This document shows, piece after piece, positions 2,448 through 50,010 of a stretch of DNA of 61,270 nt (the first letter of the stretch is position 1; the number at the start of each line of letters is the position of its first letter). Origin of the DNA: Marine Group II euryarchaeote MED-G34. Its GTDB lineage: Archaea; Thermoplasmatota; Poseidoniia; Poseidoniales; Thalassarchaeaceae. The notes beneath the pieces were generated by a model. That model did not search any database. It was not told where the DNA came from and was given only the letters and a program-made list of their open reading frames with translations. The stretch is from positions 1 to 61,270 of the forward strand of contig NTJT01000004.1 of the NCBI GenBank assembly GCA_002457605.1, in the 5' to 3' direction. The position numbers and the translations under genes are program-made.

Positions 2448-5400
2448 ATGGACGAGAGCAAAGTAATGATTGGTGACAGAAAGAGGAGAAACACCGCAAT
2501 AGCAATCGTGGTGCTAATGCTGCTGAGTACGCAGATGTACAACATGCTAAACTTCGAAGAAGAAGATTCAGAAGAATCCGTCTGGGGTGCTGTTCCACAC
2601 AGGACTGCGTACCAGCAAATGAATCAGGCCTCGGGTCCAATGTCCGGAGACACACAGGGCCAACCTGCTACCGAGTTTGCTTTCGATCAAGCGAGTTTCA
2701 CCGACCCGTCGTACCATGACCCCGCATCATTCTACGGCCAAGTATCCAATCCAGCAGCCCTCAATCTCGATCCCGGATACGGCTTCTTCCTTGAGGAGAC
2801 TCAGACCGAGGACCACGACAACGATGGAATCGACGATTTGAATGATCTCGATGACGACAACGATGGAATTGTAGATCTGATAGAGCGCTTCGACGGATGC
2901 TACGGCACCGATCCCTTCGACCACGACAACGACGGCACCCTAGACGAATTCGATTGGGATGACGACAATGACGGCATCCTTGAGGGGCCCATTGACTACT
3001 CACAGGGAGCCGATCCTAGGAACGTCAGCGCTGACCGTTATGTAGATCCAGATACAGTTCACCCTTGGACAGGAACTCCTGTAGGAATCGGCTACCGAGT
3101 TGACCAGAATCCGATGGACCACGACAACGACGGTATTACCGATGACGACACCGATGGTACTGGGCCGGACTCATATGACGAAGACGATGACAACGATGGC
3201 CGCATTGACCAGTTTAAGTGGCCGTGCGATTTTGACGGCGACGGCTTCCAGGATTACTTCGATCTCGATGATGACAACGATGGTGTGTTAGACCTCTGGG
3301 ATGAGCACCCATGGGACAGCACAATGACCAACAACATCACTTCTACCGCTTCGCTATGGGAGTCGGCCAAGGAGTGGATAGCAGGTGCTACCACTCACAA
3401 TGTCAACATCATCAGCACAGGATTTACGCCCACCAATCTAAACATCAACGCCGGCGACACTGTGGTCTGGACCAACACTGACACCACAGATCACACCGTC
3501 ACCCATGACGGTCCCGCCTTCGACAGCTTCCCGATTTCACCAGGCGCCTCATGGAGTTTCACCTTCACCACCGCAGGGACATACAACTACTCCTGCTTGC
3601 TTCACCCGACAATGACTGGGACTGTCACCGTAACCTCCTCGGGGACTACTGTCAGCACCTACTCTCAATTTGTAGGAGGTGTCGATTATGTGCAGCGCGA
3701 GACCCTTTGGCACCCTAGGAACCAGACTTTCGACACGATTATCGATGGTGATTTGGATGGCGATGGAATTCCTAACTTCATTGACCCCGACAACGACAAC
3801 GATGGCACTCCCGACTCTGCCGACACCGACGACGACAACGACGGCTTGATGGACATGTACGATGTCGACGACGACAACGATGGTATTCCTGATACATGCT
3901 ATCAGGTTGACACCAATGGCGACGGTGAGGGTGACTATCCGGTACCATACACTAGAATAGAGATTCCCGGCATTGATTGCGAGTTGGACTACGACCGAGA
4001 TCTCGATGATGACAGGTACCGGCCGATAGACCAAGACTACGATTTGGTATGGGACTGGCTTGACGTGGATATGGGAGGTACGCCACTGCCTGACAATCCT
4101 TTGGGCGGCCCTTCGATGTTCCCCGACGACATCCCATTCGATCTCGATAACGACGGTATTCCCAATGAAGAGGACCCATTCATGGTATCGACCTACGATG
4201 AGGTTCAGGACTGGAACTGCCCAAGTCTCACCAATCCCAACCCGGTTAACTCGCACGAGAACTGCGTCCTGATGCGAAAGTCATACACTGGTAACAATGA
4301 CTGGGATGGTGACGGCATCAACAACTGGGAAGACGTTGACGACGACAACGATGGTATCCTTGACTGGCTTGACATCGACGAGGATTGCGATTTTGACGAC
4401 GACAACGACCTCCACATGTTGAACGGCTCGATGTTCCGTGACGACGGCCCAAACCACCTCGATACTGATATCGACGGAGACGGTCTGCCGAACGACACTG
4501 ACTGGGACGACGACAATGACGGAATCTCTGATTACTACGACCCCGATGACGGCAATTGCGGAATAGTCGACTCCGATCAGACAGACCCGTTCAACAGCCA
4601 ATACTATTCACACAGCGATGGTGACCCAATAGATGGTTCCGACGATGGAGGAATCTACTCACACGATGTCGCTCACTTCTTTTTCTGGAACCAGACTTGG
4701 ATGTTCAATCCATTCAGCCTAGACAACAATTTCGTCCTTGACTACAACGGCTACGATAACAACAACGGGACCATTACCAATGGCAAGGTTCCCGAGATGT
4801 ATTGGTACGTCATCAACAAGTGGAGTCCATACAATGGTGACAATTACTTCGACATCGACCTCGATGGCGACTCCCTGGTCAATGGTATCGACACAGATCA
4901 AGACGGCGACGGACTGCCGGACTGGTGGGATCAAGACGAGGGCAACGATGGCGTTCTCGATGTTGACGACATCAAGATGGGTGGAACCTTCGATGATGGA
5001 ACCTGCGGATCGAGTTTGGTTTGGGCGGTTATCCAACAGGCTGTTGCCGAGCATGCATGCGGCTTGGCATATGCCTGGTTGTATGGTTATCCCTTGCAAG
5101 GAGCGACTCAGACCCAACAGACCGTCTACACTGCGCCTTACAGTACTAGGCCCGACCATCAGTTCGACGAGGGCGCATACAATGGTAGTAACTCGCAGGG
5201 CCAGTGGACCTGCATCAAGAATTGCTTCTGGTTCGACTTCTTCGGAAATCAGGATGTAGGTCCCAGCTCAGCTGTCACCTACAACCAGATCAAGAATAAC
5301 CGCGACTTGTGGGTGGCCTACGTTGGTGTAAACTTCGGTTTATTCCAATGGAATTCTGATGGCAACGCCAACATGTTCCCAGACGAGGTAGCTGACCTAC

Positions 5401-8400
5401 TGAACAACGATGTCGACCCCGACGACGATTGCGGGGCACCCATCGCTGGTAACATGAATCCGCAGTGCATGTTCAATGACACTGCCGACCTCGATGATGA
5501 CTTCGATGGAATCTACGATCATTGGGATATCGACGATGACAATGATGGCATATGGGACTATTTCGAAGTCGATACCGACGACGACTGGGACGACGATGCC
5601 AGCACCGAGCCGGATGGCTCATTCTTCATTGGCACTAACTGTGAGGATAACGACGACGATGGCACTGACACTGATCCCGACGGCGACGGCTGGTTCCAAG
5701 CGGTTTGGGATAAGGGCGTTCTAGGGCAGGGACTGCTACATCCGAAGTACTATGATGTTGACAATGACAATGACGGGGTCCCTGATGGAGAAGATCCCGA
5801 CGATGACAACAATGGTCTCTTAGACATTGATCAGGAGCTGCTTTGCTTCACTGGTGAAGAACAATCACCATGGGATCACGACAATGACGGAGTCCTTGAC
5901 TGGGCTGATGACGACTGGGACGGCGACGGGCTGGTCAATATCCTCGAGCAGGCTTCTGCCACACCGTGGATTACCCCTTGGGACCACGACAACGATGGCC
6001 TAAGAGACGACGTCGACCTCGACGACGACTCCGATGGCATGCTCGACGAGGACGAGGTCATGCTGTGGCCATCGAGATTCGATAGCGAGTCGACCAACCC
6101 ATGGGATCACGATGACTTCGGCGACGGTACTGGCATAGCCAATCCTGCGGACCCCAACACCGGTCCCGACGCGATAGACCAAGACGACGACGCCGACAAC
6201 CGCACCGATATTGATTGGGACCACCTTGAGGAGGGCTGGACCTCTGACAACTGCACCAACGGTGCTGAGTCCAGCGACTGGGACCATGACAATGATTGCA
6301 TCCTCGATGAGGATGACAAGATACCCACTAGGATATCGATGACTGTACCAGAGGTTTTGTGGCTCGACAACCGCTTCCCGGCGAAATTCAATGGAACGGT
6401 GAACTGGCTTGATCCAGTACAAGGTGTATTCATGCCTGCATCAGATTTGCCAGTTCAGGTCCATATAGAGTGGTCAAGGAATGGAACTACAGCAATAGAA
6501 ACGGTAAACGTCCTAACTAATCAGGACGGCGATTTCGTAGTCGGACAATTCCTATTCCCCGAAGACATCCACGTCGGTGACAACACCACCTACGTGGTCT
6601 ACGCTGAGGTCACGGAGATGTTCGTGCATGACGGCTCCACAACCGAGCCTGTACCAGTCGAAGTGCGGGCCAATACCACCATCGACTATGTCGCATGGAC
6701 TTACTTCCGTAGCGACGAACAACCCCTCTTTGTCGACTTCAAGGTACACTATACTGCTGACTGGGAGCGCGGCATCTTCGGCAACAGACTATCTCATGCC
6801 CCAGTCTCATTCACCATCAGCGGCGGCATCTTCGGCAACTCCACCCACCCCACTGTGTTCGACGGCTACGGCTACGGCTACAGGGCGGATATGGGTGGAT
6901 GGGTCTCACTGACCTTCGTGCAAACGAGCGGCTCACAGGGTGTCTGGAAGCAGGTGCAGTGGAATTCGACCATGGACAATGGAGTTGGTAAGGTTCCTGG
7001 TGGCTACCAAGAGATCGTATGGGATAACTTCTCTAAGACTCACAATGTCATCGGGCGCTACAACTACACAAACACCAGCCTACCGATAGGGGACTACGCC
7101 TTTGTCGGATACTCTAGGCCGGACTTGGGTGCTGAGTGGCCGTGGCCTTTCCTTGAGGGAGATAACACAGATAGCTTCGCCATACGTTCCATGCACCGAA
7201 TGTATGTCGAGGCCGATATCATCACTCCGTCTATTAGACCAGTCTACTTCTGGGACTCGACTCAATTCACTGGCTCCTCCTTCGGGGCCTGGAGGGCGCT
7301 GTTCCACACCCCCTCACTAGTCAACGCCGGCATAGACTACGCCGATGCTAGTTTAGGAAAGCCATACGCCCTGCAGTGGGACGGAACCCCAGGGGGACTG
7401 ACCGGTCAGGCGGCCACGTTACGTCCGTTCCTGAACTCGAATGGTACTCACTGGTTCATCTCAATGCAAAATGGAGGCGATTTCAACGTGCCACCATGTG
7501 GTCCCGTGGATCCACTCGACCCTGACAGCGCCGTTCGCTGCGAGATCGTGCCTGAGATGTTCACAGGGGAGGAGTTCAGGGTCATCGGAACAGTCTGGAA
7601 TCGAACTATGACCGCTTGGCCGCATGATCCAATGGCCCTCCAAGTCGACGTCGATCACAACGGCGTCTTCGCAGGCGCTCAGGAGACAGGTTTCGCCCGT
7701 GTGCCTCAGATGGTAAACGGAGAAGCCACCTTCGACTACAACTGGACATGGTACTCACAGTACTCAGCCGGAGTCTTTGGTATCCGCGCTGACTTCACTA
7801 ACTCAAACTACTATTTCACAGGCAATCAGACTGCGGTACTAGCACCTACTGGAGCATACGCAAATGTCTCCGTAATCGGAACCACTGACTTCCAACTGAA
7901 TAATGTCCCACGCCTCTACCGTGGACAGAACACCACAATTGAGGCGAGGCTGATAGACAACGCGTACCAACCGGTTCGTGATGCCCCCGTCAACTTCACT
8001 TGGTCTGCCGATGGCACCAATGACCTCGCTGTGACTGATCACAACGGGGTTTTCTCGGTCAACCTGACCATCGACAAGCAGCACGAGCTCGGTAACTTCA
8101 CTCTAAGTTACTCTTATCCGGGAGATCCGATACGACAGGGTAGCTCTTCAGAGGTCCACCTATGGGTGGTCTCTAGGACCCTGATAACGCTACAGAGTGC
8201 TACATCAGGCGCCATGAGTAGCGGCGATATTTGGGAGTTCTCGGGGCAGGTCACCGACGACAACCGTACTCCTGATCCGACCGTATTCGATGCGGGACAG
8301 GCTCTCGATGGTTGCGGCGACAATGGCGGCGAGGTACTCATCATCTTCGAAGGAACCGACTTCGAGGATCGCACTCACCGCCAGATAGTCGAAGTTGCCT

Positions 8401-10439
8401 GCCCTAGTGCCGGTTCGATTCACCACGACATCACACTTGATCCGCAGTTGCTGAGAGACGATCCCGAATCTTTCCTTCCGGATGGTTTCGGACCGGTCAA
8501 TGTCATACTACGGTTCGGTGAGAATCTGCCGCACGAGGGTTGCGAACTCCTAGATGACGACATGCTGAGGACATCTGGAGCATGGGACCCGTGCACACAG
8601 ATCCTCAACAGCGAGCATTTCCGTAAGGTGCTGCATTTCAACGCACAGGGATTCTACCTAATTGGGCGAACAAACCTCGTGGTGGATGATCAGATTGTCT
8701 ACACCTCTGAGATCGACCAGACTACCGGCCAACCTATTGACAAGCCAATGACAGTCACCGGCCAGTTGCTTGATGAACTGGGAGGCAACCTTTCGCACAG
8801 GGCCATCCGTGTCGAGTACCAAATGCTCAACATGGAGACAGGTAGCCAGGTCTGCATACCGGGTACCACAGACAACGATGGCTTCTTCGAAATTATCTGC
8901 CCGTTGTCGGGTGTCGAGGCAGGCCAAGCCATGGTGACAATTTCTTATGATCCCTATGAGAGTCTCGATAACTGGCGCTACAAGCCTACGAACATTACCA
9001 AGATTTTCCCTGTGTTCTCCAATTCTACCATGCTGCTGGAGGAAGTCGGTCCTTTTAGGACCGATGTGGATACCTACACCTTTGCCAACGGCTCCGTGTT
9101 CCCTGTGCTTTACCTCAAGGAGTCATTCCACGTTGAAGCTCTGCTCACACAGACTAATGGCAACCCGATTGGCGGCAAATGCCTCAACATATACCTCGAT
9201 CCACTGACCAACACACGACCGATTGCCACCGCCACAACGATGGACGGAACTGGTGAGGTAGAGTGGTTCTCAGGCGACCCCGAGGACAACCCCAGCAGAC
9301 GAGGGGTCGAACCCAACGGCGAGCAGTTGGAGGGCTTTAGGACAGTACGCGTGGCCTATGAGCCCGACAAGGAACTACCGGGCGGATGCCGGGCCGAGAC
9401 CACCCCAGTGGTCAACGGATCATACATGGACGTCGAAGTCTTGGTGCGTAGCCGAGTCGATATTCTACTGAAGGAACACTGGGCTAAATCGGCGGGCTAC
9501 CAACCGGGAGAGAATATCGAAGGTGCCGTGACCATACTTCGGGATCGACTCGATCTCGCGGTAGAAGGCGAGACGGTGATATTCACCTTCCAGTATTGGA
9601 ATGGCACAGGCTGGGTTACTGGCTTCCCTCCAGAGTACGCCGTCACCAATGAACAGGGCACTGCCAACTTCACTTGGCCTGGAGAGGGCTATTCAGGAGA
9701 GAACGTGCCCGGTGAGATAGATTGCGCAGCCGGAGGGCCTTGTGTCCAGAATGGGAAATGGAGGGTGCTAGTACACTTCCAAGAATCACCGTTCTATGTC
9801 GAGGAGTTCCTCAATAGCACTCCCACCATCAAACTCGGAGACGAACCAGTGACGCAGCAGACTAGCTTCTTTACGGCCAGAGTTACAGTTGTGCTCCTCA
9901 TTGCAGTATCATTCGCGCTCTTCATCGGGGCAATCATGTATCGCAACTACGCCGAGCGCCGACGTATCGAAATCATTCGTGGCATACTGACTGACTCATT
10001 GATGTCACTCAAGGCCTCTAATGACTACATCCAGACCATCTTCAACTGCTACAAGGACCTAGTAAGATTCTTCAGGTCCAGAGGGGCGATGAAGAAGGTC
10101 TACGAGACGACTAGAGAGTTCGAGGACGCAATCAACTCGATGCTTGGAGGAATAGCGTCTCCGGAAGACCTCGACGAATTCTTCTCTATCTTCGAAGAGG
10201 CGCGATACTCCGATCACGAGATTGGTGCCGACCAGCGCGACAGAGCCATAGCAACTCTGCAATCAATTGTGAATCACCTGACCTCATCGTTGGGAGACTC
10301 AATGCTGAATAGGTCGTACTCGAACGAGTCTGGCCTATATGGCACCATCACCAAGGCCGGCGAGTTTGTAGACTCTGAGGGCCAGATCCGCATCGCCGGT
10401 ATCGATGAGGAAAACCAGAACGACGACTTCAAAATCTGA
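2448..10439 (+). CDS. Giant (2663 aa) surface protein with an N-terminal membrane anchor, TSP3-like Ca-binding repeats, a cupredoxin module, a long beta-rich N-glycosylation-sequon-rich region, a C-terminal TM helix and a DUF4129-like cytoplasmic tail
   Basis: Single uninterrupted ORF. N-terminus is RKRRNTAIAIVVLMLLSTQMY. There are dozens of D-x-D-x-DG-x-x-D-x-x-D / DDDNDG units. The cupredoxin segment ends YNYSCLLHPTMTGTVTV. The C-terminal half has many N-x-S/T sequons. The TM helix is VTVVLLIAVSFALFIGAIMY. The tail reads TTREFEDAI...FEEARYSDHEI. Confidence 0.9.
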   Translation: MDESKVMIGDRKRRNTAIAIVVLMLLSTQMYNMLNFEEEDSEESVWGAVPHRTAYQQMNQASGPMSGDTQGQPATEFAFDQASFTDPSYHDPASFYGQVSNPAALNLDPGYGFFLEETQTEDHDNDGIDDLNDLDDDNDGIVDLIERFDGCYGTDPFDHDNDGTLDEFDWDDDNDGILEGPIDYSQGADPRNVSADRYVDPDTVHPWTGTPVGIGYRVDQNPMDHDNDGITDDDTDGTGPDSYDEDDDNDGRIDQFKWPCDFDGDGFQDYFDLDDDNDGVLDLWDEHPWDSTMTNNITSTASLWESAKEWIAGATTHNVNIISTGFTPTNLNINAGDTVVWTNTDTTDHTVTHDGPAFDSFPISPGASWSFTFTTAGTYNYSCLLHPTMTGTVTVTSSGTTVSTYSQFVGGVDYVQRETLWHPRNQTFDTIIDGDLDGDGIPNFIDPDNDNDGTPDSADTDDDNDGLMDMYDVDDDNDGIPDTCYQVDTNGDGEGDYPVPYTRIEIPGIDCELDYDRDLDDDRYRPIDQDYDLVWDWLDVDMGGTPLPDNPLGGPSMFPDDIPFDLDNDGIPNEEDPFMVSTYDEVQDWNCPSLTNPNPVNSHENCVLMRKSYTGNNDWDGDGINNWEDVDDDNDGILDWLDIDEDCDFDDDNDLHMLNGSMFRDDGPNHLDTDIDGDGLPNDTDWDDDNDGISDYYDPDDGNCGIVDSDQTDPFNSQYYSHSDGDPIDGSDDGGIYSHDVAHFFFWNQTWMFNPFSLDNNFVLDYNGYDNNNGTITNGKVPEMYWYVINKWSPYNGDNYFDIDLDGDSLVNGIDTDQDGDGLPDWWDQDEGNDGVLDVDDIKMGGTFDDGTCGSSLVWAVIQQAVAEHACGLAYAWLYGYPLQGATQTQQTVYTAPYSTRPDHQFDEGAYNGSNSQGQWTCIKNCFWFDFFGNQDVGPSSAVTYNQIKNNRDLWVAYVGVNFGLFQWNSDGNANMFPDEVADLLNNDVDPDDDCGAPIAGNMNPQCMFNDTADLDDDFDGIYDHWDIDDDNDGIWDYFEVDTDDDWDDDASTEPDGSFFIGTNCEDNDDDGTDTDPDGDGWFQAVWDKGVLGQGLLHPKYYDVDNDNDGVPDGEDPDDDNNGLLDIDQELLCFTGEEQSPWDHDNDGVLDWADDDWDGDGLVNILEQASATPWITPWDHDNDGLRDDVDLDDDSDGMLDEDEVMLWPSRFDSESTNPWDHDDFGDGTGIANPADPNTGPDAIDQDDDADNRTDIDWDHLEEGWTSDNCTNGAESSDWDHDNDCILDEDDKIPTRISMTVPEVLWLDNRFPAKFNGTVNWLDPVQGVFMPASDLPVQVHIEWSRNGTTAIETVNVLTNQDGDFVVGQFLFPEDIHVGDNTTYVVYAEVTEMFVHDGSTTEPVPVEVRANTTIDYVAWTYFRSDEQPLFVDFKVHYTADWERGIFGNRLSHAPVSFTISGGIFGNSTHPTVFDGYGYGYRADMGGWVSLTFVQTSGSQGVWKQVQWNSTMDNGVGKVPGGYQEIVWDNFSKTHNVIGRYNYTNTSLPIGDYAFVGYSRPDLGAEWPWPFLEGDNTDSFAIRSMHRMYVEADIITPSIRPVYFWDSTQFTGSSFGAWRALFHTPSLVNAGIDYADASLGKPYALQWDGTPGGLTGQAATLRPFLNSNGTHWFISMQNGGDFNVPPCGPVDPLDPDSAVRCEIVPEMFTGEEFRVIGTVWNRTMTAWPHDPMALQVDVDHNGVFAGAQETGFARVPQMVNGEATFDYNWTWYSQYSAGVFGIRADFTNSNYYFTGNQTAVLAPTGAYANVSVIGTTDFQLNNVPRLYRGQNTTIEARLIDNAYQPVRDAPVNFTWSADGTNDLAVTDHNGVFSVNLTIDKQHELGNFTLSYSYPGDPIRQGSSSEVHLWVVSRTLITLQSATSGAMSSGDIWEFSGQVTDDNRTPDPTVFDAGQALDGCGDNGGEVLIIFEGTDFEDRTHRQIVEVACPSAGSIHHDITLDPQLLRDDPESFLPDGFGPVNVILRFGENLPHEGCELLDDDMLRTSGAWDPCTQILNSEHFRKVLHFNAQGFYLIGRTNLVVDDQIVYTSEIDQTTGQPIDKPMTVTGQLLDELGGNLSHRAIRVEYQMLNMETGSQVCIPGTTDNDGFFEIICPLSGVEAGQAMVTISYDPYESLDNWRYKPTNITKIFPVFSNSTMLLEEVGPFRTDVDTYTFANGSVFPVLYLKESFHVEALLTQTNGNPIGGKCLNIYLDPLTNTRPIATATTMDGTGEVEWFSGDPEDNPSRRGVEPNGEQLEGFRTVRVAYEPDKELPGGCRAETTPVVNGSYMDVEVLVRSRVDILLKEHWAKSAGYQPGENIEGAVTILRDRLDLAVEGETVIFTFQYWNGTGWVTGFPPEYAVTNEQGTANFTWPGEGYSGENVPGEIDCAAGGPCVQNGKWRVLVHFQESPFYVEEFLNSTPTIKLGDEPVTQQTSFFTARVTVVLLIAVSFALFIGAIMYRNYAERRRIEIIRGILTDSLMSLKASNDYIQTIFNCYKDLVRFFRSRGAMKKVYETTREFEDAINSMLGGIASPEDLDEFFSIFEEARYSDHEIGADQRDRAIATLQSIVNHLTSSLGDSMLNRSYSNESGLYGTITKAGEFVDSEGQIRIAGIDEENQNDDFKI
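2811..6318 (+). repeat. Coding array of thrombospondin-type-3-like acidic Ca-binding repeats (DxDxDGxxDxxD, DDDNDG)
   Basis: gacgacgacaacgatgg-type nucleotide strings recur throughout. The peptide motifs DHDNDG, DDDNDG and DTDxDGxPD repeat more than 30 times. Confidence 0.85.
3396..3634 (+). other. Cupredoxin (plastocyanin/amicyanin-like) domain inside the giant protein
   Basis: HNVNIISTGFTPTNLNINAGDTVVWTNTDTTDHTVTHDG...GTYNYSCLLHPTMTGTVTV. It shows the His...Cys-x2-His-x2-Met spacing of type-1 copper sites. Confidence 0.7.
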
Positions 10440-10448
10440 TTGAATATT

Positions 10449-10547
10449 CTCGGGGTGCTGCTCCGTTAATGGGAGGCGCGGCCTTCCGCCCCTTCGGGGC
10501 GCCCCGTAGCATTCATAACAGCGCCTCGGGTGGCCGCGCTACCCGAG
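10449..10547 (+). other. GC-rich multi-stem structured element between the giant gene and the r-protein operon (terminator, leader or small RNA)
   Basis: Nested complementarities: ctcggg (10449-54) with cccgag (10542-47), gcgcggcc (10476-83) with ggccgcgc (10532-39), and cgcccc-ttc-ggggcg (10487-10501). Confidence 0.3.
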
Positions 10548-10565
10548 TAACGTCGAGGGAGTCAT

Positions 10566-11858: not shown

Positions 11859-12065
11859 ATGTTGATTCCAGTAAGGTGTTGGAGCTGTGGCAAGGTGATT
11901 GCCCACGTCTACGAGCAGTACAAGCAGGCAGTCGAGAGTGGCGAGGATGCTCAGAGTACCCTTGAGAATCTAGGTATCGAGAGATACTGCTGCAGGAGGA
12001 TGTTCGTAGGTCACGTAGATCTCCTCGATGAGGTTGCCCCATTCAGCATCGCCAGAGAGCAATAG
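11859..12065 (+). CDS. rpoN: DNA-directed RNA polymerase subunit N (Rpo10/RpoN)
   Basis: MLIPVRCWSCGKVIAHVYEQY...LGIERYCCRRMFVGHVDL is the classical Rpo10 Zn-binding fold sequence. Start set to the ATG at 11859, giving 68 aa. Confidence 0.9.
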   Translation: MLIPVRCWSCGKVIAHVYEQYKQAVESGEDAQSTLENLGIERYCCRRMFVGHVDLLDEVAPFSIAREQ

Positions 12066-12112
12066 TACCCGACAGGGCTTTGACCAATTCCCCCCTCGCT
12101 TTGAGAGCCCAA

Positions 12113-12190
12113 GGGCCTGTAGGTTAGTTTGGCCTATACTTCGCGGCTGGGGGTCGCGCGACCCAGGTTCAAATCCTGGCAGGCCCACCA
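12113..12190 (+). tRNA. tRNA-Pro, anticodon GGG by hand fold, with genomically encoded CCA
   Basis: Acceptor GGGCCTG/CAGGCCC. U8, A14, G18G19 and A21 are present. Anticodon stem is CGCGG/TCGCG with loop CTGGGGG (U33, G37). T arm is CCAGG-TTCAAAT-CCTGG, followed by discriminator A and CCA. The variable loop is 4 nt in my fold. Confidence 0.8.
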
Positions 12191-12225
12191 CTTTCATCCC
12201 AATCTTCCTCATGTTGCCCAAAAAT

Positions 12226-12244
12226 AGGAGCCCGTAGGGCTCCT
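12226..12244. terminator. Perfect 8-bp hairpin AGGAGCCC-gta-GGGCTCCT downstream of tRNA-Pro
   Basis: Seen directly. The T-run (aaaaat on the plus strand) lies on the side expected for a minus-strand terminator, so its function is unclear. Confidence 0.3.
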
Positions 12245-12283
12245 AAACCGCAAGTTGAAGGCACTAGGCCACCTTCGTGCACC

Positions 12284-14422
12284 ATGGCAGCGGAGCGGCC
12301 TAGCGAAGGCGGCGAGCAGACGCTCGTGGATTGGCTAGCCGAGCAGATAGCACACCACTCGCACCTTTACTACAACGAGGCTAGTCCTGAGATAACGGAT
12401 GCCGAGTTCGACAAGCTCTGGGATGAATTGAGCAGGCTAGCCCCTGAACATCCCCAATTGAAGAAGGTCGGCTCGGACCCTCCACCTGGTTCTGTCAAGG
12501 TGAATCACTTGTTCGTGATGCGTAGTCTTGACAAGTCGAGCACCGAGGAAGAGGTCAAACACTTCGTCGCCGAGACCACTGCTCAGAGCCGCAGGTTCGT
12601 GTGCCAGCCCAAATTGGATGGCTCCGCACTGTCTCTGGAATATCGTAGGGGCCGTTTGGTCAGAGCAGCTACCAGGGGGAGCGGGACTCGGGGTGAAGAC
12701 GTGACAGCAAACGTCCGCAGAATCCCGAATGTCCCGGAATCCATTGACTGGGGTGGCGACTGCCACATCAAGGGAGAAGTGGTAATGCCGTTACAGACTT
12801 TCAGAGAAAGCTACGCTGAGATAGCGCCGAACCCTAGGAATCTCGCTGCTGGCTCACTCAGGCAGAAGCACATTGAGGCTGGCAAGGGCAGAGCCGAGGA
12901 CCTCCTCTTCCTCGCTTACGGTGCTGAGTTTCCAGCTATTGGCCCAAGGCACCCAGACAGCCCCGATCCACCAGTGTTCGAGTACGATTCCGAGGTAATT
13001 TCGTGGTTGCAGACAGAGGGCATCGAGGTAGCCGGAAACGAAGTCGTAGGTGGCTCCGATGATGACTCAACCAGTGCGGCGATAATGTCGGTCGTACAGA
13101 GATGGACCGAGGGAAGAGACGCCGCTGATTGGGAGATTGATGGCGTCGTTGTCAAACTCGACAGACTGGACAAGCGAGAAATCCTCGGCATGACCGCGCA
13201 CCACCCGCGTTGGGCCCTAGCATGGAAGTTCCCTCCAGAGGAGGCTACCACTGTGTTAATGGATGTCGAATGGCAGACTGGGAGGACAGGAAACGTGACC
13301 CCTGTCTCCAGAGTGGCCCCAGTAAGGGTATCGGGAGTAACTGTGGAGAACACCACTCTGCACAATAAGGGCGAGGTGGAACGACTCGAGATTATGGTCT
13401 CAGACAAAGTTAGGGTGGTCCGCAGAGGGGATGTCATTCCCAAAATTGTGGAAGTGCTCGGACCTGCTAGCGTTACCGATCTCGAAGGTCGGCGACACTC
13501 CGACGGACAACCGTTTGCAGAAGCGTTGCCTGAGCGCCAACCTGTCATTATTCCAGTTGAGTGCCCGCGCTGCGCAACTCCTTTGATTGAAGATGGAGCT
13601 TTCATCCGATGCACAAACCTCGATTGCCCATCGAGACTAGAGAGGACAATTCTGTACTGGTGCAGGCACCTCGAGATGGATGGGATAGGCGAGAAACTGG
13701 CCGAACAACTCTGCGTAACAGGACTCGTCAGGACATTAGCCGACCTGTACAAACTCACTCATCAGGATATCGCGGGATTGGAAAGGATGGCTGATAGGTC
13801 AGCTAGTAACGTAATCGATGAACTAGAGGCCAGTCGGAGTATGACTCTCAGCACTTTCATCGCAGCACTAGGGTTGCCGAGGATAGGGCCCGAGATATCC
13901 TCAGTCATCGCGACGGAGGTAGGCAATCTCGAAACTCTTCTCGAACTGGTCGAGAAGAAAGACGAGGAAGCGGGCATGGGTGTTGATGGCAAACCGAACA
14001 AGTACAACGCGGCGATTAACCGTCTCATTTCCATCGACAGGGTAGGAGAGACGGTCGCGAGACTCCTCCTTGATGGTCTGGACACCCGTTCGACCATAGT
14101 GGAAGAACTCAGCCTAGAACTTGACATCACCGAGGAGTCGCCCAAGCAGGAGGCTGGTCCCCTGCGGGGTCTGACATTCTGTATCACAGGGGCCCTCAGT
14201 CGTCCGAGGAAAGAGATCGCCATATACATCAAGATAGCAGGTGGTAAGGTGGTGTCATCAGTCTCCGGGAAGTTGGACTACCTAGTTGCAGGGGAATCTG
14301 CAGGTTCCAAACTCGACAAGGCCAATAGACTCGGTGTCGAGGTCCTCTCGGAGTCCGAACTAGCTGAACTGATAGGGATGAACGCTCCTTTCGACCCCCA
14401 GAGTTCGCTGGTTGACTTCTAA
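12284..14422 (+). CDS. ligA: NAD+-dependent DNA ligase LigA
   Basis: 712 aa. N-terminal Ia-like region is HHSHLYYNEASPEITDAEFDKLWDEL. Adenylation motif is CQPKLDGSALSL. The OB region is present. The Cys4 Zn finger is CPRCATPL...CTNLDCPSR. HhH repeats are present. The C-terminal BRCT is LTFCITGALS...GGKVVSSVSGKLDYLVAGESAGSKLDKA. Confidence 0.92.
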   Translation: MAAERPSEGGEQTLVDWLAEQIAHHSHLYYNEASPEITDAEFDKLWDELSRLAPEHPQLKKVGSDPPPGSVKVNHLFVMRSLDKSSTEEEVKHFVAETTAQSRRFVCQPKLDGSALSLEYRRGRLVRAATRGSGTRGEDVTANVRRIPNVPESIDWGGDCHIKGEVVMPLQTFRESYAEIAPNPRNLAAGSLRQKHIEAGKGRAEDLLFLAYGAEFPAIGPRHPDSPDPPVFEYDSEVISWLQTEGIEVAGNEVVGGSDDDSTSAAIMSVVQRWTEGRDAADWEIDGVVVKLDRLDKREILGMTAHHPRWALAWKFPPEEATTVLMDVEWQTGRTGNVTPVSRVAPVRVSGVTVENTTLHNKGEVERLEIMVSDKVRVVRRGDVIPKIVEVLGPASVTDLEGRRHSDGQPFAEALPERQPVIIPVECPRCATPLIEDGAFIRCTNLDCPSRLERTILYWCRHLEMDGIGEKLAEQLCVTGLVRTLADLYKLTHQDIAGLERMADRSASNVIDELEASRSMTLSTFIAALGLPRIGPEISSVIATEVGNLETLLELVEKKDEEAGMGVDGKPNKYNAAINRLISIDRVGETVARLLLDGLDTRSTIVEELSLELDITEESPKQEAGPLRGLTFCITGALSRPRKEIAIYIKIAGGKVVSSVSGKLDYLVAGESAGSKLDKANRLGVEVLSESELAELIGMNAPFDPQSSLVDF

Positions 14423-18728: not shown

Positions 18729-18805
18729 GGACCCATAGTGTAGCCTGGATATCACATGAGCTTGCGGAGCTTGTAACCCGTGTTCAAATCGCGGTGGGTC
18801 CGCCA
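18729..18805 (+). tRNA. tRNA-Arg (anticodon GCG), CCA encoded
   Basis: Acceptor GGACCCA/TGGGTCC. D arm has A14, G18G19 and A21. Anticodon stem is TGAGC/GCTTG with loop TTGCGGA. T arm is CCGTG-TTCAAAT-CGCGG, followed by discriminator G and CCA. Confidence 0.85.
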
Positions 18806-18867: not shown

Positions 18868-18944
18868 GGACCCATAGTGTAGCCTGGATATCACTCTAGC
18901 CTCCGGAGCTGGAAACCCGTGTTCGAATCGCGGTGGGTCCGCCA
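18868..18944 (+). tRNA. tRNA-Arg (anticodon CCG), CCA encoded
   Basis: Same acceptor, D and T arms as the tRNA at 18729, apart from one T-loop difference (TTCGAAT). Anticodon stem is CTAGC/GCTGG with loop CTCCGGA. Confidence 0.85.
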
Positions 18945-26255: not shown

Positions 26256-29200
26256 ATGGAAAATAAGAAAATAATTGCAATGATGCTTACCCTGAGCATG
26301 CTAGCGGCAGCGTTCGCTGGTTGTCTAGGGGGAGATGATGAACCGGAACCTGAACCGGAAGACGTACCGGGTTGTATGGACGCTACTGCGAACAACTACA
26401 ACGCCGATGCGACATCCGATGATGGGTCGTGTACGTACGACCCAACATGGTCCTTGACACCCGCAGCTAGCGTAAGTGCAGCGTGGGTAGCTTCGGACTG
26501 GGATCCCATCATCCCCAACCTGAATGCGGGAGATATGTGTGACGCTATTCTCTCGGCGATGACCAAGACGGATGAGAGAGACCAAGTGGTCGATTTCACC
26601 CGTGGCTATTACACTAGTAGCCAGGGAGTCATTGGAGCTAGCGGAGCTGCTGCCATCTCTGATGTCAGCGAGTTGAACGCGGCTGGAACTACGATTGCAC
26701 TTGCATCGGGAACCACCTCGGACATCTACGCGCAGGAGAACCTTGCCGCCGCTACTATCCAAGCCTACACCGACTGGCCTTCTGTGATACTCGCAATCAA
26801 CAACGGAGATGCGGACTACGCACTCGGCGACGCACCTGTGCTCGCATTGGAGGGCGCTCTTATGACGACCTTCTCTGACGAGACTTTCGGTCTCGCTATT
26901 CGCGAGGACTCTAATGAGCTCGAAGACGCTCTGAACGTCGCGATAACCGCGCTTGTAGATGGTGGTCAGTACGACGCCATCTTTGGAGCATGGTTCGAGG
27001 GCACTGTGGTCCTAACCGACGACAGGACAGCCGACACCGCTACGGCGTACCCGACACCTACCGAGGGCAGTACCCTCACTGGTGTGTTGGAGTCTGGCAG
27101 TCTAGAGTTCTGCATTGACCCGTTCTACCCACCGTTCGAGAACCTCGACGCGGATGGGAATGAGGAGGGCTTCGACATAGATATCGGAGACGCAATCGCT
27201 GAGGAGTTGGCCGCTCACTACATGGGCGCCGACAACCCTGATTTCGTACCTCCTGTTGTTGTGACCACGAAGATCGGACTACTGAACCCGCTGACTGGCC
27301 CGATTGCCGTTTACGCACCACCCTTCACATGGGCTGCGCAAGCTGCGATTGATGACCTGAATGCCGCGGCTGCGAGTGTAGGAGTTGACATGACCTTCGA
27401 GCTTGTCGAGGCCGACTCTGGCTGCAGCGGCGATGTCGCTTCTGGAGCCGCCCAGTCCCTAGTGGACGCGGGCGTTGTCGGTGTTGCAGGAGCTGCCTGC
27501 TCCGGCGCCTCAATGGCTGCTAACGCGGTCTTGAACGCTGCAGGAGTTCCGCAGGTCTCGTACGCGAGCACCAACCCCGGTCTGAGCGATGCCAGTGCCT
27601 ACCCAGGCTTCTGGCGAGTCGTTCCGAGCGACGCCATACAGGGTCCAGCCATGTCTGACATGGTGGGTGCTGCTGGCGTGTCCAACGTGGCTCTGATCCA
27701 CATGACCAACGACTACGGTGCTGGTCTGGCAGACGCCTTCGCGGACGCTTGGGGTGGCGCAGATTTCCTGTGCACCCAGATTGGCTACGAGGACACACAG
27801 ACTGACTTCGCTGCCGAGGTCCAGGCCATCGCTGACGCTGAGTGCGACTCGGTGGTCATGGTATCCTACTCCAGTGATGGAGCGGCTATCATGGAGACCA
27901 TGGCTGTGCTAGGAGTCTCAGTGCCTGTCTTCGGCGCAGACGGAATCGCAGACGCGGCTTGGCTGGAAGACTTCAGCGTACCCGCAGCTGCTAACGGCGT
28001 GATGGCTACCAAGCCTCGTGCTGGTTCCAGCGCGGGCGACTTTAACGACGAGTGCTCGATGGACGAGACGTGCGCTGGTGGTATCTACACCGCCGAGACC
28101 TACGACGCTGTGATGATGATCGGTCAGGCTGCAATGCATGAGAATGGAGCCAACATGGCATCCCACCTCAACATGGTCGGAGTGGACTACGCTGGTGCAA
28201 GCGGTTCGCACACCTTCCTCAGCAACGGAGACGTTGCTGGAGCGGGTTACGATATCTGCGAGTTCGTAGCACTGTCAAGCTCTGACATCTACTTCAACTG
28301 CATGGAGTGGTGGTCGGCTATCGACGGCATCCAGGACACCCCCTTCAACGGTGCTACCGTGAAGATTGGATTCCTGAACCCGATGACTGGACCTATCGCT
28401 GTTTACGCACCGGGCTTCGGTGCTGCGGCAACCATCGCCCTCGGGATGATGAACGCTGCAGGATGGAGCAACGGTCTACAGTTTGAGATGGTAATGGCTG
28501 ACTCTGGTTGCAACGGCGACGTCGCTGCTACCGCAGCTCAGACCCTAATCGATGCTGGAGTAGTCGGTGTAGTGGGAGCAGCTTGCTCAGGCGCAACAAT
28601 GGCCGCTAACGCGGTTCTCAGCGCTGCAGGTATCCCAATGATCTCGTACGCGAGCACCAACCCTGGTCTCAGCGACGCAGAAGCATACCCGAACTTCTTC
28701 CGAGTTGTGCCTAGCGACGCTATCCAGGGCCCTGCTCTGAATGACGTGGTCACAGCAGATGGCGGCACCGCTGTCGCTCTGATGTACATGACCAACGACT
28801 ACGGCTCAGGATTCGCTGACGCGTTCACAGCCGCTCATGGTGCAGACAACCTCTGTGCTTCGATTGGCTATGAGGAGACCACAACCGACTTCACCTCTCA
28901 GGTGCAGCAGGTTATAGACAACAGCTGTGGCAGTGTAGTAATGATTTCGTACGCTGCTGACGGAGCGGCCATCGTTGAGGAGCTCGCAGCTCAGAGCTTC
29001 TCTGGACAGATTTTCGGAGGCGACGGTGTCGCTGAGGAAGGACTGTGTGCTTCGATGACTGACCCAACACTGTGCGATGGTATCGTTGCCACCAAGCCGG
29101 CTTCGGCTACCCCGAATGAGCGCTCGGTGGCTTTCGCCGCTATTTGTGGAGCAATCCCTGACTGCGCTGAAGGTATCTACACCGCTGAGGCGTTCGATGC

Positions 29201-29441
29201 TATGATCATCATGGGATACGCTGTATTCGCGGGCGCTTCGAGCCCCGCGGGCACACCTCTCGGCTTGCTGATTGGTGCTGTTGGACAGGGCTTCGTAGGC
29301 GCCAGTGGCGTCCACACCTTCACCGCCGGTGGCGATGTAGGCGGCAACGGATACTGTGTTGGAACCTTCAACGCAGCAGACGATGGAACTGTCTCGTTCG
29401 ACTGCGACCGATTCTGGTCGCTGTCGGGCGGCATATCCTGA
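26256..29441 (+). CDS. Lipoprotein-anchored triple substrate-binding protein: family-3 (polar amino acid) SBP-like domain plus two tandem LIVBP-type (branched-chain amino acid) domains
   Basis: The signal and lipobox are MLTLSMLAAAFAGC. A Cys-bounded GCMDATANNYNADATSDDGSCTY module follows. The SBP_bac_3-like segment is MTKTDERDQVVDFTRGYY...GTTSD...ADYALGDAPV. Two LIVBP units each begin KIG(L/F)LNP(L/M)TGPIAVYAP. Confidence 0.88.
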   Translation: MENKKIIAMMLTLSMLAAAFAGCLGGDDEPEPEPEDVPGCMDATANNYNADATSDDGSCTYDPTWSLTPAASVSAAWVASDWDPIIPNLNAGDMCDAILSAMTKTDERDQVVDFTRGYYTSSQGVIGASGAAAISDVSELNAAGTTIALASGTTSDIYAQENLAAATIQAYTDWPSVILAINNGDADYALGDAPVLALEGALMTTFSDETFGLAIREDSNELEDALNVAITALVDGGQYDAIFGAWFEGTVVLTDDRTADTATAYPTPTEGSTLTGVLESGSLEFCIDPFYPPFENLDADGNEEGFDIDIGDAIAEELAAHYMGADNPDFVPPVVVTTKIGLLNPLTGPIAVYAPPFTWAAQAAIDDLNAAAASVGVDMTFELVEADSGCSGDVASGAAQSLVDAGVVGVAGAACSGASMAANAVLNAAGVPQVSYASTNPGLSDASAYPGFWRVVPSDAIQGPAMSDMVGAAGVSNVALIHMTNDYGAGLADAFADAWGGADFLCTQIGYEDTQTDFAAEVQAIADAECDSVVMVSYSSDGAAIMETMAVLGVSVPVFGADGIADAAWLEDFSVPAAANGVMATKPRAGSSAGDFNDECSMDETCAGGIYTAETYDAVMMIGQAAMHENGANMASHLNMVGVDYAGASGSHTFLSNGDVAGAGYDICEFVALSSSDIYFNCMEWWSAIDGIQDTPFNGATVKIGFLNPMTGPIAVYAPGFGAAATIALGMMNAAGWSNGLQFEMVMADSGCNGDVAATAAQTLIDAGVVGVVGAACSGATMAANAVLSAAGIPMISYASTNPGLSDAEAYPNFFRVVPSDAIQGPALNDVVTADGGTAVALMYMTNDYGSGFADAFTAAHGADNLCASIGYEETTTDFTSQVQQVIDNSCGSVVMISYAADGAAIVEELAAQSFSGQIFGGDGVAEEGLCASMTDPTLCDGIVATKPASATPNERSVAFAAICGAIPDCAEGIYTAEAFDAMIIMGYAVFAGASSPAGTPLGLLIGAVGQGFVGASGVHTFTAGGDVGGNGYCVGTFNAADDGTVSFDCDRFWSLSGGIS
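27270..29438 (+). repeat. Tandem in-frame duplication of a roughly 364-aa LIVBP domain (27270-28361 and 28362-29438)
   Basis: Long colinear peptide matches include ADSGC(S/N)GDVA..AAQ.L.DAGVVGV.GAACSGA.MAANAVL.AAG.P..SYASTNPGLSDA.AYP.F.RVVPSDAIQGPA in both copies. Nucleotide similarity is visible but diverged. Confidence 0.8.
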
Positions 29442-29475
29442 GTCCTTAGTGACTGAAAGGAAACTGGGAACGTAA

Positions 29476-29508
29476 AGCACCACGGCGGGCTAACTGCCTG
29501 CCGTGGTG
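29476..29508 (+). terminator. Perfect 10-bp intercistronic hairpin between the SBP and permease genes
   Basis: gcaccacggc (29476-85) pairs with gccgtggtgc (29499-29508) across a 13-nt loop. Confidence 0.4.
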
Positions 29509-29564
29509 CCCCCCAACAATGATTACTATCTACAGACAGCGTCAGACGGGCGGTATCACCGCCG

Positions 29565-32500
29565 GTGTTATCGATGCTCGACTCCCAACTTAGCAGGTGG
29601 AACTCTCTGTCTCGAGGGAGCCGTAGGACGGCCATCGCGCTGCTCATCATCATAGACGCCAATATGGGTCTACTGAACGGCTGGGGCCTACTCAATCTGT
29701 TAGACTCCCTCTCTGGGGGCAATGTACCCAATGATATGGTCTGGCTGCTGCAGGTCATTGAGTCAATTTCAGGTGGATTCTTCCTAGTCAAGATCCTATT
29801 CGACGATGTTCCTGCAAGTTGGCCAAGATCGATTGCCATCGCCTTGTCGCCAATATTCCTGTTGTTCATGGTGGGCATGAGTCTTGACAATCTATTCAAG
29901 GGCCTGAATGACGACGTCAGACTAACTCTCGACCTCATCTCCATAGGCACATCAACACTCACATGGTCATCGACCTATCTCGCAATCGCAGTCGGACTGA
30001 CTCTCACTTACAAGGTCCAGCGCTACGGTAACTTTGCCCAAAGTGAGTTCTTCATGCTCGGCATGTATCTCTCTATGGTCATGGTCTGGTCTGACTACTT
30101 CTTCCCGATGTACGATGCACCTCTGGACGGCACTCTGGCATGGTCTGTACTTCTCTGGACGCTTGTTGCCGCTTTCGTACTCACCGGTCTTGCTGGTATC
30201 ATCATCGACAGGCTCGTTTATCGCGGTTTCAGGAAGAAGGAAGCTTCACCGCAGGTGATGATGATTGCTTCTCTAGGGGTGGCTCTAGCTCTGAGGGCCA
30301 TCACCTACCTCCGCTTCGGCGCCGGCAAGAAGATGTTTGAGCCGGATGCTGATTGGAGAGTCCCAACTTTGAGGTGGGACATACCAACCCAGAAACTGCG
30401 ATTGAATTTAGGCGTCAGGGATCTCGAAGATGGTGATACATACACGCACGGTGGATGCGAGGCAGTAGGCACAGACGAGGCCGGTGCACCGCTGTACGAA
30501 CATATCACGAGTGAGGGCAGCAAGCCACTGTTTGATCTGTATAATCTAGCCAACGACTGTGTCACCGAGGCCACCACTGGCTATGCTTACTACAAGGGTG
30601 CAATCCCTGTCATAGTCTTCACCTCCGTCATTCTACTGCTGATCCTGCTCAGGAAGACTCGGCTCGGGCGCAGAATGAGGGCAGTAGCCGACAACCCCGA
30701 CCTAGCAGCCAGCAGCGGAATCAACGTCGAACGAATCCAACTAACAAGCGCATTCCTGTCAGCAGGAATTTCAGGAATGGGAGGGGCCATCTTCGCAATG
30801 ACCCTCAGGTTCACCCCGGAGACCGCCTTCACTCTCCTACTGCCCTCGTTTGCGGTAATCGTCCTCGGAACCATTGGCTCGATTCCTGGAGCCATTGTAG
30901 GCTCACTGATTGTCGGTTTCGTCAGAGCCCTCTCCTCACCTGTATTGATTGGAATCGGACTTCCTCTGGGGCGTTCCAACTACACTGCTCTAGACGGTGT
31001 GATGCCCTATGTCTTCCTTGTAGCAATACTCATGATTATGCCAGAAGGCATCGGGTCGGCATGGGAGAAATGGAAAGTCGACAGGTTACGCAAACGAGCT
31101 GAGGAGAAACCATCCAAAAAACTGGGGGCGATTCTCGCCATATCTCCTTTGGGTGTATTGGGGGCGCATAACTTCCAGCAGAGGAAAAACGCCAGAGGCG
31201 AATCGATGATGATCGTGACCATCGGGGCCTATGTGTTCAGCAGAATCACCCGCTTCATTGCTGGCAACTCATTCGCCCAGGGATCCTGCTCCGACGACTG
31301 CCAGGACTCTGGCTCAGTCGCAACTAACTTCGAGATGGTGACTGGCCGTACCGAGGGTGAATTCGTTCTCACCGACTCGCCATTTACAGAATCGGATGTC
31401 CAGATTAGCCCTCCCAGCGACATGGACTCCACCGCTGCAGAACAGTGGCTCGCAGACGCACTCGCTGATTTGAACAACTCATGGCTGAACTTGATGAACA
31501 CCGAACTTGGATTCGTCAACACCCTAGTGGACCTAGGTGACGTCATCTGGCCTGCCGTCCCGATACTGGTCTGGTTGATTGCTGTAATTGAGGGCTACTT
31601 CCTGTTTCAGGGTCGTGAAGATGACGCCTTGGAGCCACTGACTGACTTCATCGCAAACCTGACCGCGCCTATCACCCAGTCTAGGAACTCTAGCTCGGTA
31701 GCCGTTACTCAGGCCCTCGGTTCGGCACGGACTCCACTAGATTCTTTCCACACAACGTTGTACAATGGCTTAGATAGTTTCCAGTCGGGATTCGACCGTG
31801 AACAGAAATACATGCTTCTAGCCGTCTTAGTAGTAATTCTCGCCACAGTTCTTCCACCGTTCTTCGCAAGGGCCCTATTGATTCTAGTTCTTCTGTGGAT
31901 CGTCGGTCTCTCACTACTTGCTTGGAAGACGGGAAATCCTCCCCTAGGGGAACTGAGGCGCCTAGCGCCGTATGGCAGAGAGAGCCCTTTCGGATCGTGG
32001 GTCGCGTTCATCTCCCTGCTGGTATTCTTGCTGCTGTTCGTCGAGTGGCTGCCGGTAGCAGAATCCGAGAATCAGGCCTTCATCAAGACACTGCAAGTTT
32101 CCAACGTACTACTGACTCTCGCCATATTCTCGCTGATGGCCTTCTCTCTGAACTTGCATACTGGTGTTACGGGAATGGTCAACTTTGGAGTCATATTCTT
32201 CGTTGGGGTGGGGGCAATAACTGTGGGCATCTTGACCGCCCCCAAGGATTTGCATGGTTACGACTGGCCAATTTTCTGGGCGGTCGTAGCAGGGGTGCTC
32301 CTATCGGCTTTATTCGGCTGGTTATTGGCATACCCCACGGCAAGGCTCCGGATGGACTACTTCGCCATCGTGACAATATCACTCGGTGAGATTGTACGCG
32401 TACTGTTGATGGGCGAACCTTTGCTGAGGGCCGGTTCTTGGGGATCGTCAATAGGTATCTCGCGTTATCCTATGCCGTTTGAGAACTGGTGGTTCTGCGG

Positions 32501-49950: not shown

Positions 49951-50010
49951 TATCTTAGATTCGGTATCAGACCCTTAGGTGGGTTGAATAACCCCACCCC
50001 ACCATTGCGT

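Follow-up and report, generated by a model that had tools for sequence, protein, structure and literature searches.

Giant surface proteins built of immunoglobulin (Ig)-like arrays are a kind already known in archaea, from the arCOG01314 neighbourhood. Makarova, Galperin & Koonin (2015) proposed that the DUF4350/MoxR/vWA gene neighbourhood encodes a novel secretion or membrane-remodelling complex, and its Ig-like proteins were taken to be predicted surface-layer (S-layer) proteins (PMC5898192). In Marine Group II (MGII), Ca-dependent adhesion domains have been reported in proteins of particle fractions (Orsi et al. 2015; PMC4511931), and the thrombospondin genes that are widespread in the order Poseidoniales have been listed as adhesion-related (Rinke et al. 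2019; PMC6461757). In the literature searched we found no description of the MGII cell envelope beyond such generic "thrombospondin" or "adhesion-domain" genes, and nothing specific on a giant protein, an S-layer or DUF4129 in these archaea. Here we analyse a giant gene carried by a 61,270-nucleotide stretch of the genome of MGII euryarchaeote MED-G34 (contig NTJT01000004.1, positions 1 to 61,270 of the forward strand; hereafter the window), which belongs to the Thalassarchaeaceae/MGIIb side of the Poseidoniales. Its product is, on balance, probably a constitutive, C-terminally anchored core envelope glycoprotein of the Poseidoniales, whose tail may dock a MoxR/DUF58 module.

The gene occupies positions 2448-10439 on the plus strand, the strand of all the features of the protein given below. 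It begins with ATG, encodes 2663 residues, the coordinates including the stop codon, and is the sole long open frame at the locus. An earlier note, made from the sequence alone, had placed and described this 8-kb open reading frame (ORF) correctly. It had also proposed a large, probably N-glycosylated cell-envelope protein, and this is borne out by the enrichment in glycosylation sequons, by the Ca-binding motifs and by a transmembrane helix. Databases name the family "hypothetical", "DUF4129 domain-containing" and even "plastocyanin".

The gene is a vertically inherited, syntenic core gene of the Poseidoniales, transcribed at approximately the level of ribosomal-protein genes. More than 100 full-length orthologues, 51-95% identical and named as Thalassarchaeaceae (the closest), Poseidoniaceae or Poseidoniales, were obtained by searching protein databases. 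Their lengths stay between 2500 and 2714 residues throughout many assemblies, one orthologue lying on a 1.97-Mb contig. When 57 non-redundant sequences (less than 85% mutual identity) were aligned, the C-terminal beta region proved almost gap-free, with 50-76% identity, and the cytoplasmic domain reached 70-73%; variable stretches are limited to residues 1-100 and to a region that holds an inserted cupredoxin domain. In both families the gene stands directly upstream of rpl18e-rpl13-rps9(-rpoN), the start of rpl18e being at most 1.2 kb away in 33 of the 36 species-level loci that extend far enough to show it. In four metatranscriptomes, each from a different study, assembled RNA contigs are found over the whole length of the gene. 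Over the non-repetitive beta region the RNA depth parallels that of the adjacent ribosomal-protein genes (5-14 versus 5-16 in X25, 2-12 versus 2-13 in X27), and the genes upstream of the giant gene are far lower, at 0-3. Taken together, the constant length, the gap-free beta region, the degree of identity, the synteny and the transcription argue for a housekeeping structural role rather than for that of a variable, niche-specific adhesin.

The C-terminal end of the protein reveals its kinship. The cytoplasmic helical domain (residues 2500-2663, 164 residues, 9945-10436) has five predicted helices and contains a match to Pfam DUF4129 (PF13559) at residues 2534-2604 (10047-10259), scoring 28.2 bits against a gathering threshold of 24.8; precomputed annotation assigns most orthologues to this family too. 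The earlier note had described a cytoplasmic domain of about 160 residues and had listed DUF4129 among the families to be tried, a guess that proved right. A HMMER search with residues 1464-2663 against 1.84 billion representative proteins gave 500 matches. Beyond MGII orthologues and their fragments, these comprise many proteins of 600-2989 residues, 25-33% identical, with a transmembrane helix and a DUF4129 tail at the extreme C-terminus and several Ig-like stretches; Pfam recognizes Big_3_5, CarboxypepD_reg, MG2/MG4 and DUF4129 in them, and two are named in their sources as Thermoplasmata DUF4129 proteins. Judged by sequence, the giant protein is the MGII member of a Thermoplasmatota family made up of a signal peptide, an Ig-like array, a transmembrane helix and a DUF4129 tail. 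With the arCOG01314-neighbourhood proteins of Marine Group III (MGIII) and Thermoplasmata it shares a homologous transmembrane helix plus tail (BLASTP E value of 7e-14 to P0169), homologous beta-sandwich repeats of the Big_3_5/CarboxypepD_reg type, an N-terminal export signal and a high sequon load. It differs from them by an additional 1200-residue polyacidic expansion with 34 DxDxDG motifs, by a non-repeat Cys-rich domain and, in one subclade, by the cupredoxin.

DUF4129 is a domain that follows transglutaminase cores. The TgpA-like transglutaminase proteins resemble the giant protein in having a large extracytoplasmic domain, a transmembrane helix and DUF4129; however, no transglutaminase core was detected here by Pfam, and the ectodomain is an Ig-like array with acidic repeats. 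In bifidobacteria, the PFNA cluster has a MoxR-DUF58-transglutaminase gene neighbourhood (PMC8430577), and the presence of MoxR and DUF58 genes nearby is common to such clusters and to the archaeal relatives described here.

At all three of the relatives that were looked up, the genes follow the order DUF4129 protein-DUF4350-MoxR (AAA_3, an AAA+ ATPase)-DUF58 (vWA-like)-polytopic membrane protein. Species-representative genomes were scanned for DUF4350, and 80 loci were then searched by tblastn. In all of the approximately 25 loci from MGIII and other Thermoplasmatota, a DUF4129-tailed gene adjoins DUF4350, and MoxR and DUF58 then follow in nearly all of them where the contig is long enough. 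A MoxR-DUF4129 (435 residues)-DUF58 adjacency is also found in a cultured Haloarcula (Haloarcula sp. NS06). The situation in MGII is different: MoxR lies inside the operon in MGIII and Thermoplasmata, whereas MGII carry a Cdc48-type ATPase upstream of DUF4350, with the order Cdc48-DUF4350-DUF58-five-transmembrane (5TM) protein in 56 of 56 DUF4350 loci, none of which has a MoxR or DUF4129 gene within 9 kb. The MGII MoxR, 57-61% identical to the operonic MoxR of MGIII, stands alone after aIF5B. The giant gene itself is thus outside any such operon, upstream of rpl18e, with MoxR and DUF4350-DUF58 at two other loci. The full DUF4129/DUF4350/MoxR/DUF58 set has therefore been kept in MGII, scattered beside housekeeping genes; this retention was counted in MGII genomes other than that of the window.

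Two observations on these loci may be added. The MGII MoxR gene is found between the aIF5B/NDK genes and a gene for a MinD/ParA-like ATPase (L088-L090, e.g. L090:5953-6945). The Cdc48-type double-AAA ATPase gene is directly upstream of DUF4350-DUF58-5TM, on the same strand, at each of the 56 MGII loci (L030-L087, e.g. L050:6234-12643); this could be coincidental synteny, or the ATPase partner could have changed. As for the partners themselves, DUF4350 has a signal segment and a C-terminal transmembrane helix, DUF58 an N-terminal hairpin and the last gene product 5-7 transmembrane helices, while MoxR is soluble; by their predicted topologies they look like parts of a membrane complex. The family tie to DUF4350-MoxR-DUF58 operons had escaped the earlier note, as had the inserted cupredoxin and the status of the gene as a syntenic core gene. 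This tie gives a concrete partner to the idea, raised in that note, of signalling to the cytoplasmic tail.

The outer part of the protein next to the membrane is a chain of about 10 to 11 Ig/macroglobulin (MG)-like beta-sandwich domains (residues 1291-2465, 6318-9842), rich in sequons and containing conserved cysteines. An AlphaFold2 model of residues 1464-2663, built with 57 orthologues, has a mean predicted local distance difference test score (pLDDT) of 79, with values of about 80-90 in the domains, and consists of a beta-sandwich chain up to residue 2463, a long transmembrane helix and a five-helix tail. When the segment was scanned alone, Pfam Big_1 was found at residues 1827-1878 (39.4 against a threshold of 34.9). 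Between residues 1251 and 2470 there are 29 N-x-S/T sequons, compared with 9.8 +/- 2.8 in shuffled sequences, while the N-terminal half shows no enrichment (10 against 10.2). The enrichment occurs in every orthologue (mean of 27.7 against 11 in shuffles). Moreover, 20 of the 41 sequons of the window protein are conserved in position in at least 80% of the orthologues, 17 of these 20 being inside the beta array. This stalk is probably N-glycosylated at about 20 position-conserved sequons, and its conserved cysteines probably form disulfide pairs; in the protein as a whole, most cysteines are invariant among orthologues and even in number. The long sequon-rich beta region announced by the earlier note is therefore there, both in the sequon counts and in the modelled chain.

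The best Foldseek matches of this model are complement C3/C5, alpha-2-macroglobulins, CD109 and TEP1, with E values of about 1e-17. These MG-domain chains superpose with template modelling (TM) scores of 0.14 at most and root mean square deviations (rmsd) of about 50 A, which means that only the type of domain is common to both. Besides the MG-like beta-sandwich chain, the resemblance to alpha-2-macroglobulin, complement C3-C5 and TEP proteins includes weak Pfam MG2/MG4 matches; but the C[GS]EQ thioester motif and the A2M, TED, CUB and bait regions are all missing here. Membership of the alpha-2-macroglobulin family was rejected on the TM scores and on the lack of the thioester motif and of A2M/TED domains.

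The distal half is of a quite different nature. It contains 34 DxDxDG motifs between residues 122 and 1197 (13 full DxDxDGxxDxxD units and nine that read DDDNDG among them), where composition-preserving shuffles of residues 41-1250 give 1.1 +/- 1.1 and never more than 7. Aspartate makes up 21.7% of residues 41-1250, and the net charge of residues 41-1290 is -287. The motifs are distributed over three acidic regions: region I (residues 101-300, 2748-3347), 67-81% identical across the order and free of Pfam matches; region II (residues 430-842, 3735-4973), with conserved cysteines; and region III (residues 1010-1290, 5475-6317), delimited by motif positions and conservation. Between the last two lies a small non-repeat alpha/beta domain (residues 843-990, 4974-5417; pLDDT 60-83), whose cysteines C853, C871, C922 and C926 are 100% conserved. 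Pfam, run on eight sub-segments, finds no family for the acidic regions, for this small domain or for the first 528 residues of the beta region. In an AlphaFold2 model of residues 264-1463 (mean pLDDT 53), the cupredoxin, the alpha/beta domain and the first beta-sandwich are the confident parts and the acidic repeats stay below 50. The low value in region II would fit a folding that depends on ions.

The large extracellular protein rich in Ca-binding motifs that the earlier note had foreseen is supported, but its description of the repeats as thrombospondin type 3 (TSP3)-like holds only in part. The DxDxDGxxDxxD motif does occur in tandem, far above expectation, at a spacing of about 13 residues and in an extracellular, Cys-containing context, as in the thrombospondin type-3 families (PF02412/PF18884). 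However, neither Pfam model is reached: TSP_3 scores 10.6 bits against a threshold of 25 on the best segment and TSP3_bac gives no match, isolated repeat segments included, and the cysteines do not follow the pattern of animal TSP3. The label is for this reason to be used at the level of the motif only.

As to the origin of the acidic half, a few DxDxDG motifs are present at the distal, N-terminal end of some distant relatives themselves, which makes an expansion in place likelier than a gene fusion. At one MGIII locus (L007:4991-7915), a separate 974-residue protein with bacterial-type TSP3 repeats (PDGWE-type) is encoded directly upstream of the DUF4129-tailed gene. A fusion with this TSP3_bac gene was considered for the N-terminal half and rejected: BLASTP matches between the two reflect the repeat motif only, beyond which the sequences cannot be aligned.

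Within the acidic half, the window protein contains a cupredoxin domain of the type-1 blue-copper kind (residues 301-398, 3348-3641), recognized by Pfam at residues 301-395 (Cupredoxin_1, 30.2 against a threshold of 27; Copper-bind, 28 against 21.2), by a sequence search of the PDB and by Foldseek. The PDB matches are 9cck (E value of 1e-12) and amicyanins, and the whole protein has no PDB sequence match outside this domain. The model of the domain (pLDDT 82-89) superposes on 5fc9 with a TM score of 0.81 and an rmsd of 1.2 A. The candidate copper ligands are H349 or H353, C383, H386 and M389, with the C-x2-H-x2-M spacing of amicyanin. With this fold and a His-Cys-His-Met ligand set, the domain is predicted to bind copper. 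The ligands are intact in the window protein and in its three closest aligned relatives and lost in P0014, P0018 and P0021. The insertion is present in seven of 17 aligned sequences and in seven of 38 species loci: it is a lineage-specific, recent addition in one MGIIb subclade. Since the other 31 loci have no such domain, and some of the copies no longer have the ligands, the core function of the protein must lie elsewhere. It resembles the cupredoxins of Nitrosopumilus maritimus and the amicyanins in fold, with 30-35% identity and the H...C-x2-H-x2-M spacing; but amicyanin and plastocyanin cupredoxins are soluble electron carriers, whereas here the domain is part of a giant surface protein, is missing from most orthologues and in some has no ligands left. 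The nearest solved relatives, 9cck and 5fc9, come from N. maritimus, a marine thaumarchaeon, and this kinship may reflect gene transfer between co-occurring planktonic archaea.

The earlier note had assumed that both ends of the protein are held in the membrane. The C-terminal transmembrane helix, which it put at about 9868-9945, stands: it spans residues 2475-2499 (9870-9944), has a Kyte-Doolittle value of 2.77 at residues 2479-2497 and starts at residue 1016 of the AlphaFold2 model. It is followed by YRNYAERRR, in agreement with the positive-inside rule, and we infer from this RRR-rich flank alone that the DUF4129 tail is on the cytoplasmic side. At the other end, an anchor is only a possibility. 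A hydrophobic segment is present after RKRR (residues 15-36, 2490-2555), but it is weak, with a Kyte-Doolittle value of 1.65, and may or may not be retained as an anchor. The uncharged run has a median length of 23 residues among orthologues, and the Kyte-Doolittle value is at least 1.6 in 46 of 57. In MGII, the segment has an n-region of 15-20 residues and an uncharged stretch of 21-25 but lacks an AxA site, and it is ambiguous in sequence between a Sec signal peptide and an uncleaved signal-anchor. In distant relatives that share the C-terminal module, a short n-region and an AxA-type site give the N-terminus the look of a cleavable Sec signal peptide; this calls the N-terminal anchor into question and points to a type I family, anchored at the C-terminus only.

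These elements suggest the following sequence of events. The protein would be exported by the Sec pathway through its N-terminal signal segment, and the C-terminal transmembrane helix would halt transfer, leaving about 2440 residues outside and the DUF4129 domain of about 160 residues in the cytoplasm. The 10 to 11 Ig/MG-like domains would form a stalk beside the membrane, with N-glycans on the conserved sequons. The distal 1200-residue polyacidic region, with its 34 DxDxDG loops, would need a load of Ca2+ (or Mg2+) from seawater in order to fold or stiffen, and would constitute the outermost layer of the cell; in the subclade of the window it also carries the inserted blue-copper domain. In the cytoplasm, the MoxR/DUF58 module, acting like a chaperone, would dock on the DUF4129 tail and so assemble, insert or set the state of the surface complex. 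In MGII, where every partner is kept, the operon would have been dispersed beside housekeeping genes. A stronger version, which we hold to be unlikely, makes the protein the principal component of the MGII outer envelope, a Ca2+-loaded glycosylated canopy on Ig-like stalks whose assembly or conformational state is set from the cytoplasm via DUF4129-DUF58-MoxR contacts.

Several points weigh against the proposal of a core envelope glycoprotein served by MoxR and DUF58. We know of no established function for the DUF4350-MoxR-DUF58 module. The tblastn search of the 61-kb window disclosed no MoxR, DUF58 or DUF4350 gene and, with no adjacency in MGII, the functional link depends on the homology of the tail (25-31% identity) and on the operons of other orders. 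Because the acidic half has no confident model, its Ca-dependent folding is argued from the motifs only. Contig depth is a rough and poor measure of expression. Finally, structural and adhesive roles are not mutually exclusive.

This last point leads to the alternative put forward in the earlier note, namely that the protein is a Ca2+-dependent adhesin by which MGII cells attach to particles, to phytoplankton or to each other. In most adhesins, the number and the sequence of the repeats are variable and the distribution is patchy. Both the DxDxDG array and the Ig-like stalk are what one expects of an adhesin, the MGII "thrombospondin" genes have been read likewise in the literature (PMC6461757), and Ca-dependent adhesion domains are present in MGII proteins from particle fractions (PMC4511931). 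Nevertheless, the giant protein fits this role poorly: its length is nearly constant, there are no near-identical tandem repeats, it is conserved throughout the order with 51-95% identity, its synteny is fixed and its transcription is at the level of ribosomal-protein genes. In giant adhesins of the repeat-variable sort (RTX/Bap-like), near-identical tandem repeats differ in number, whereas here the repeats are 60-80% identical, the orthologues are constant in length and four metagenomes show no indels. The gene is present in both families, although the MGII populations of the North Sea are mostly free-living (PMC6864105), and Pfam, applied to the whole protein and to segments, detects no lectin, vWA or cadherin ligand-binding domain. 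A specialised adhesin is thus an unlikely candidate, and a constitutive structural role in the envelope is more likely.

A second alternative is that the protein is the main S-layer-type lattice protein covering the MGII cell, its DUF4129 tail being a mere anchor. The universality of the protein, the conserved sequons, the C-terminal anchor and an RNA depth comparable to that of ribosomal-protein genes all go in this direction, as does the published placing of Ig-like proteins encoded near DUF4350 among predicted S-layer proteins (PMC5898192). But no observation supports the formation of a lattice, and a 2663-residue subunit with a polyacidic stretch of 1200 residues does not resemble the known S-layer proteins. 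The strong conservation of the cytoplasmic domain of about 160 residues suggests more than anchoring, and the RNA depth is on a par with that of the ribosomal-protein genes instead of greatly exceeding it. We consider this possibility somewhat weaker still than that of an adhesin.

It could also be imagined that the protein is a receptor working from the outside in, the binding of Ca2+, Cu or a ligand being relayed through the transmembrane helix and the DUF4129 tail to MoxR/DUF58. Such a function would account for the conserved cytoplasmic tail, for the intact copper site of the cupredoxin in the lineage of the window and for the fact that, in other orders, DUF4129 genes are linked to one for an AAA+ ATPase. 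It is improbable, however: Pfam recognizes no kinase, HAMP, GGDEF or other signalling domain, a single transmembrane helix under a 2400-residue ectodomain would be a poor transducer, and the cupredoxin is absent from most orthologue loci (31 of 38), with its ligands lost in some of the others.

Lastly, the idea that the ORF is an assembly artefact, arising from repeat collapse or expansion or from a chimeric frame, draws on the low-level repetitiveness of DxDxDG-coding DNA and on 20-23-nucleotide cross-matches that produce spurious joints, and it is effectively refuted by the imperfect repeats, the gapless coverage in four metagenome runs and the constant length of the orthologues in many assemblies. 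Indeed, the DNA repeats within the gene are 33-78 nucleotides long and only 60-80% identical, and repeat analysis found no tandem arrays. In four independent marine metagenome runs, the contigs over the gene form a colinear tiling of flat depth and without indels, and a single contig of 3231 nucleotides goes through its most repetitive part. The contig "joints" were examined as possible deletions and rejected, since one of their two sides is no more than 20-23 nucleotides long and they derive from other DxDxDG-coding genes. The repeat collapse or expansion that the earlier note had thought of is contradicted by the repeat, contig and orthologue-length evidence alike.

Some further features of the window and of the loci compared deserve mention. 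The intergenic region downstream of the giant gene (10440-10565) shows no meaningful folding above shuffled sequences (z of -2.1) and no match in Rfam. A few kilobases downstream of the ribosomal-protein cluster lies a gene for an NAD-dependent DNA ligase of bacterial type (LigA domains; 12284-14422), whose position is kept in both MGII families. There are tRNA genes at 12113-12187, 18729-18802 and 18868-18941, and the first of them accounts for a steep increase in contig depth that every metagenome run shows at 11966-12300. Some contigs with clearly Poseidoniales genes (L031, L187, L207, L212) are filed in metagenome-assembled genomes labelled Salinimicrobium, Verrucomicrobiales, Acidimicrobiaceae or Gammaproteobacteria, probably as a result of binning errors in public records. 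Farther along the window, a gene for a fused solute-binding protein of 1061 residues, with SBP_bac_3 and two Peripla_BP_6/ANF_receptor domains, precedes one for a 1321-residue protein with two BPD_transp_2 domains (26256-33530), and by their domains the two look like an unusually fused ATP-binding cassette transporter of the branched-chain amino-acid type. The 1090-residue protein encoded at 44595-47867, with RCC1 and Ephrin_rec_like repeats, is probably another large surface protein. Two large adjacent genes at 49984-58514, encoding proteins of 1204 residues (PDDEXK_1) and 1686 residues (UvrD helicase plus PDDEXK_1), resemble a bacterial helicase-nuclease pair of the AddAB type, here in an archaeal genome.

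Marine Group II is an uncultured, globally abundant group, among the most abundant archaea of the surface ocean. In the literature searched, we found no description of the architecture of the giant protein, of its status as a syntenic core gene, of the cupredoxin insertion or of the link to DUF4350-MoxR-DUF58 with its dispersal in MGII. A glycoprotein of 2.6 thousand residues that is universal, syntenic and well transcribed is a leading candidate for the dominant structure at the surface of these cells, the one encountered by viruses, grazers, particles and trace metals. As such, it offers a ready target for metaproteomics, for antibodies, for labelling of the fluorescence in situ hybridization type and for the interpretation of cryo-electron tomograms. 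Its polyacidic ectodomain, carried by an abundant plankter, may matter for the binding of Ca and trace metals at the cell surface. The tail also ties the protein to DUF4129/DUF4350/MoxR/DUF58, a set of genes that many archaea and bacteria have and that has no known function. Should the protein indeed prove to be the principal, Ca2+-loaded component of the outer envelope, controlled from the cytoplasm through this set, this would provide a first functional handle on that module and a first molecular picture of the MGII cell surface, to which a copper centre would have been added in the cupredoxin-bearing MGIIb subclade.

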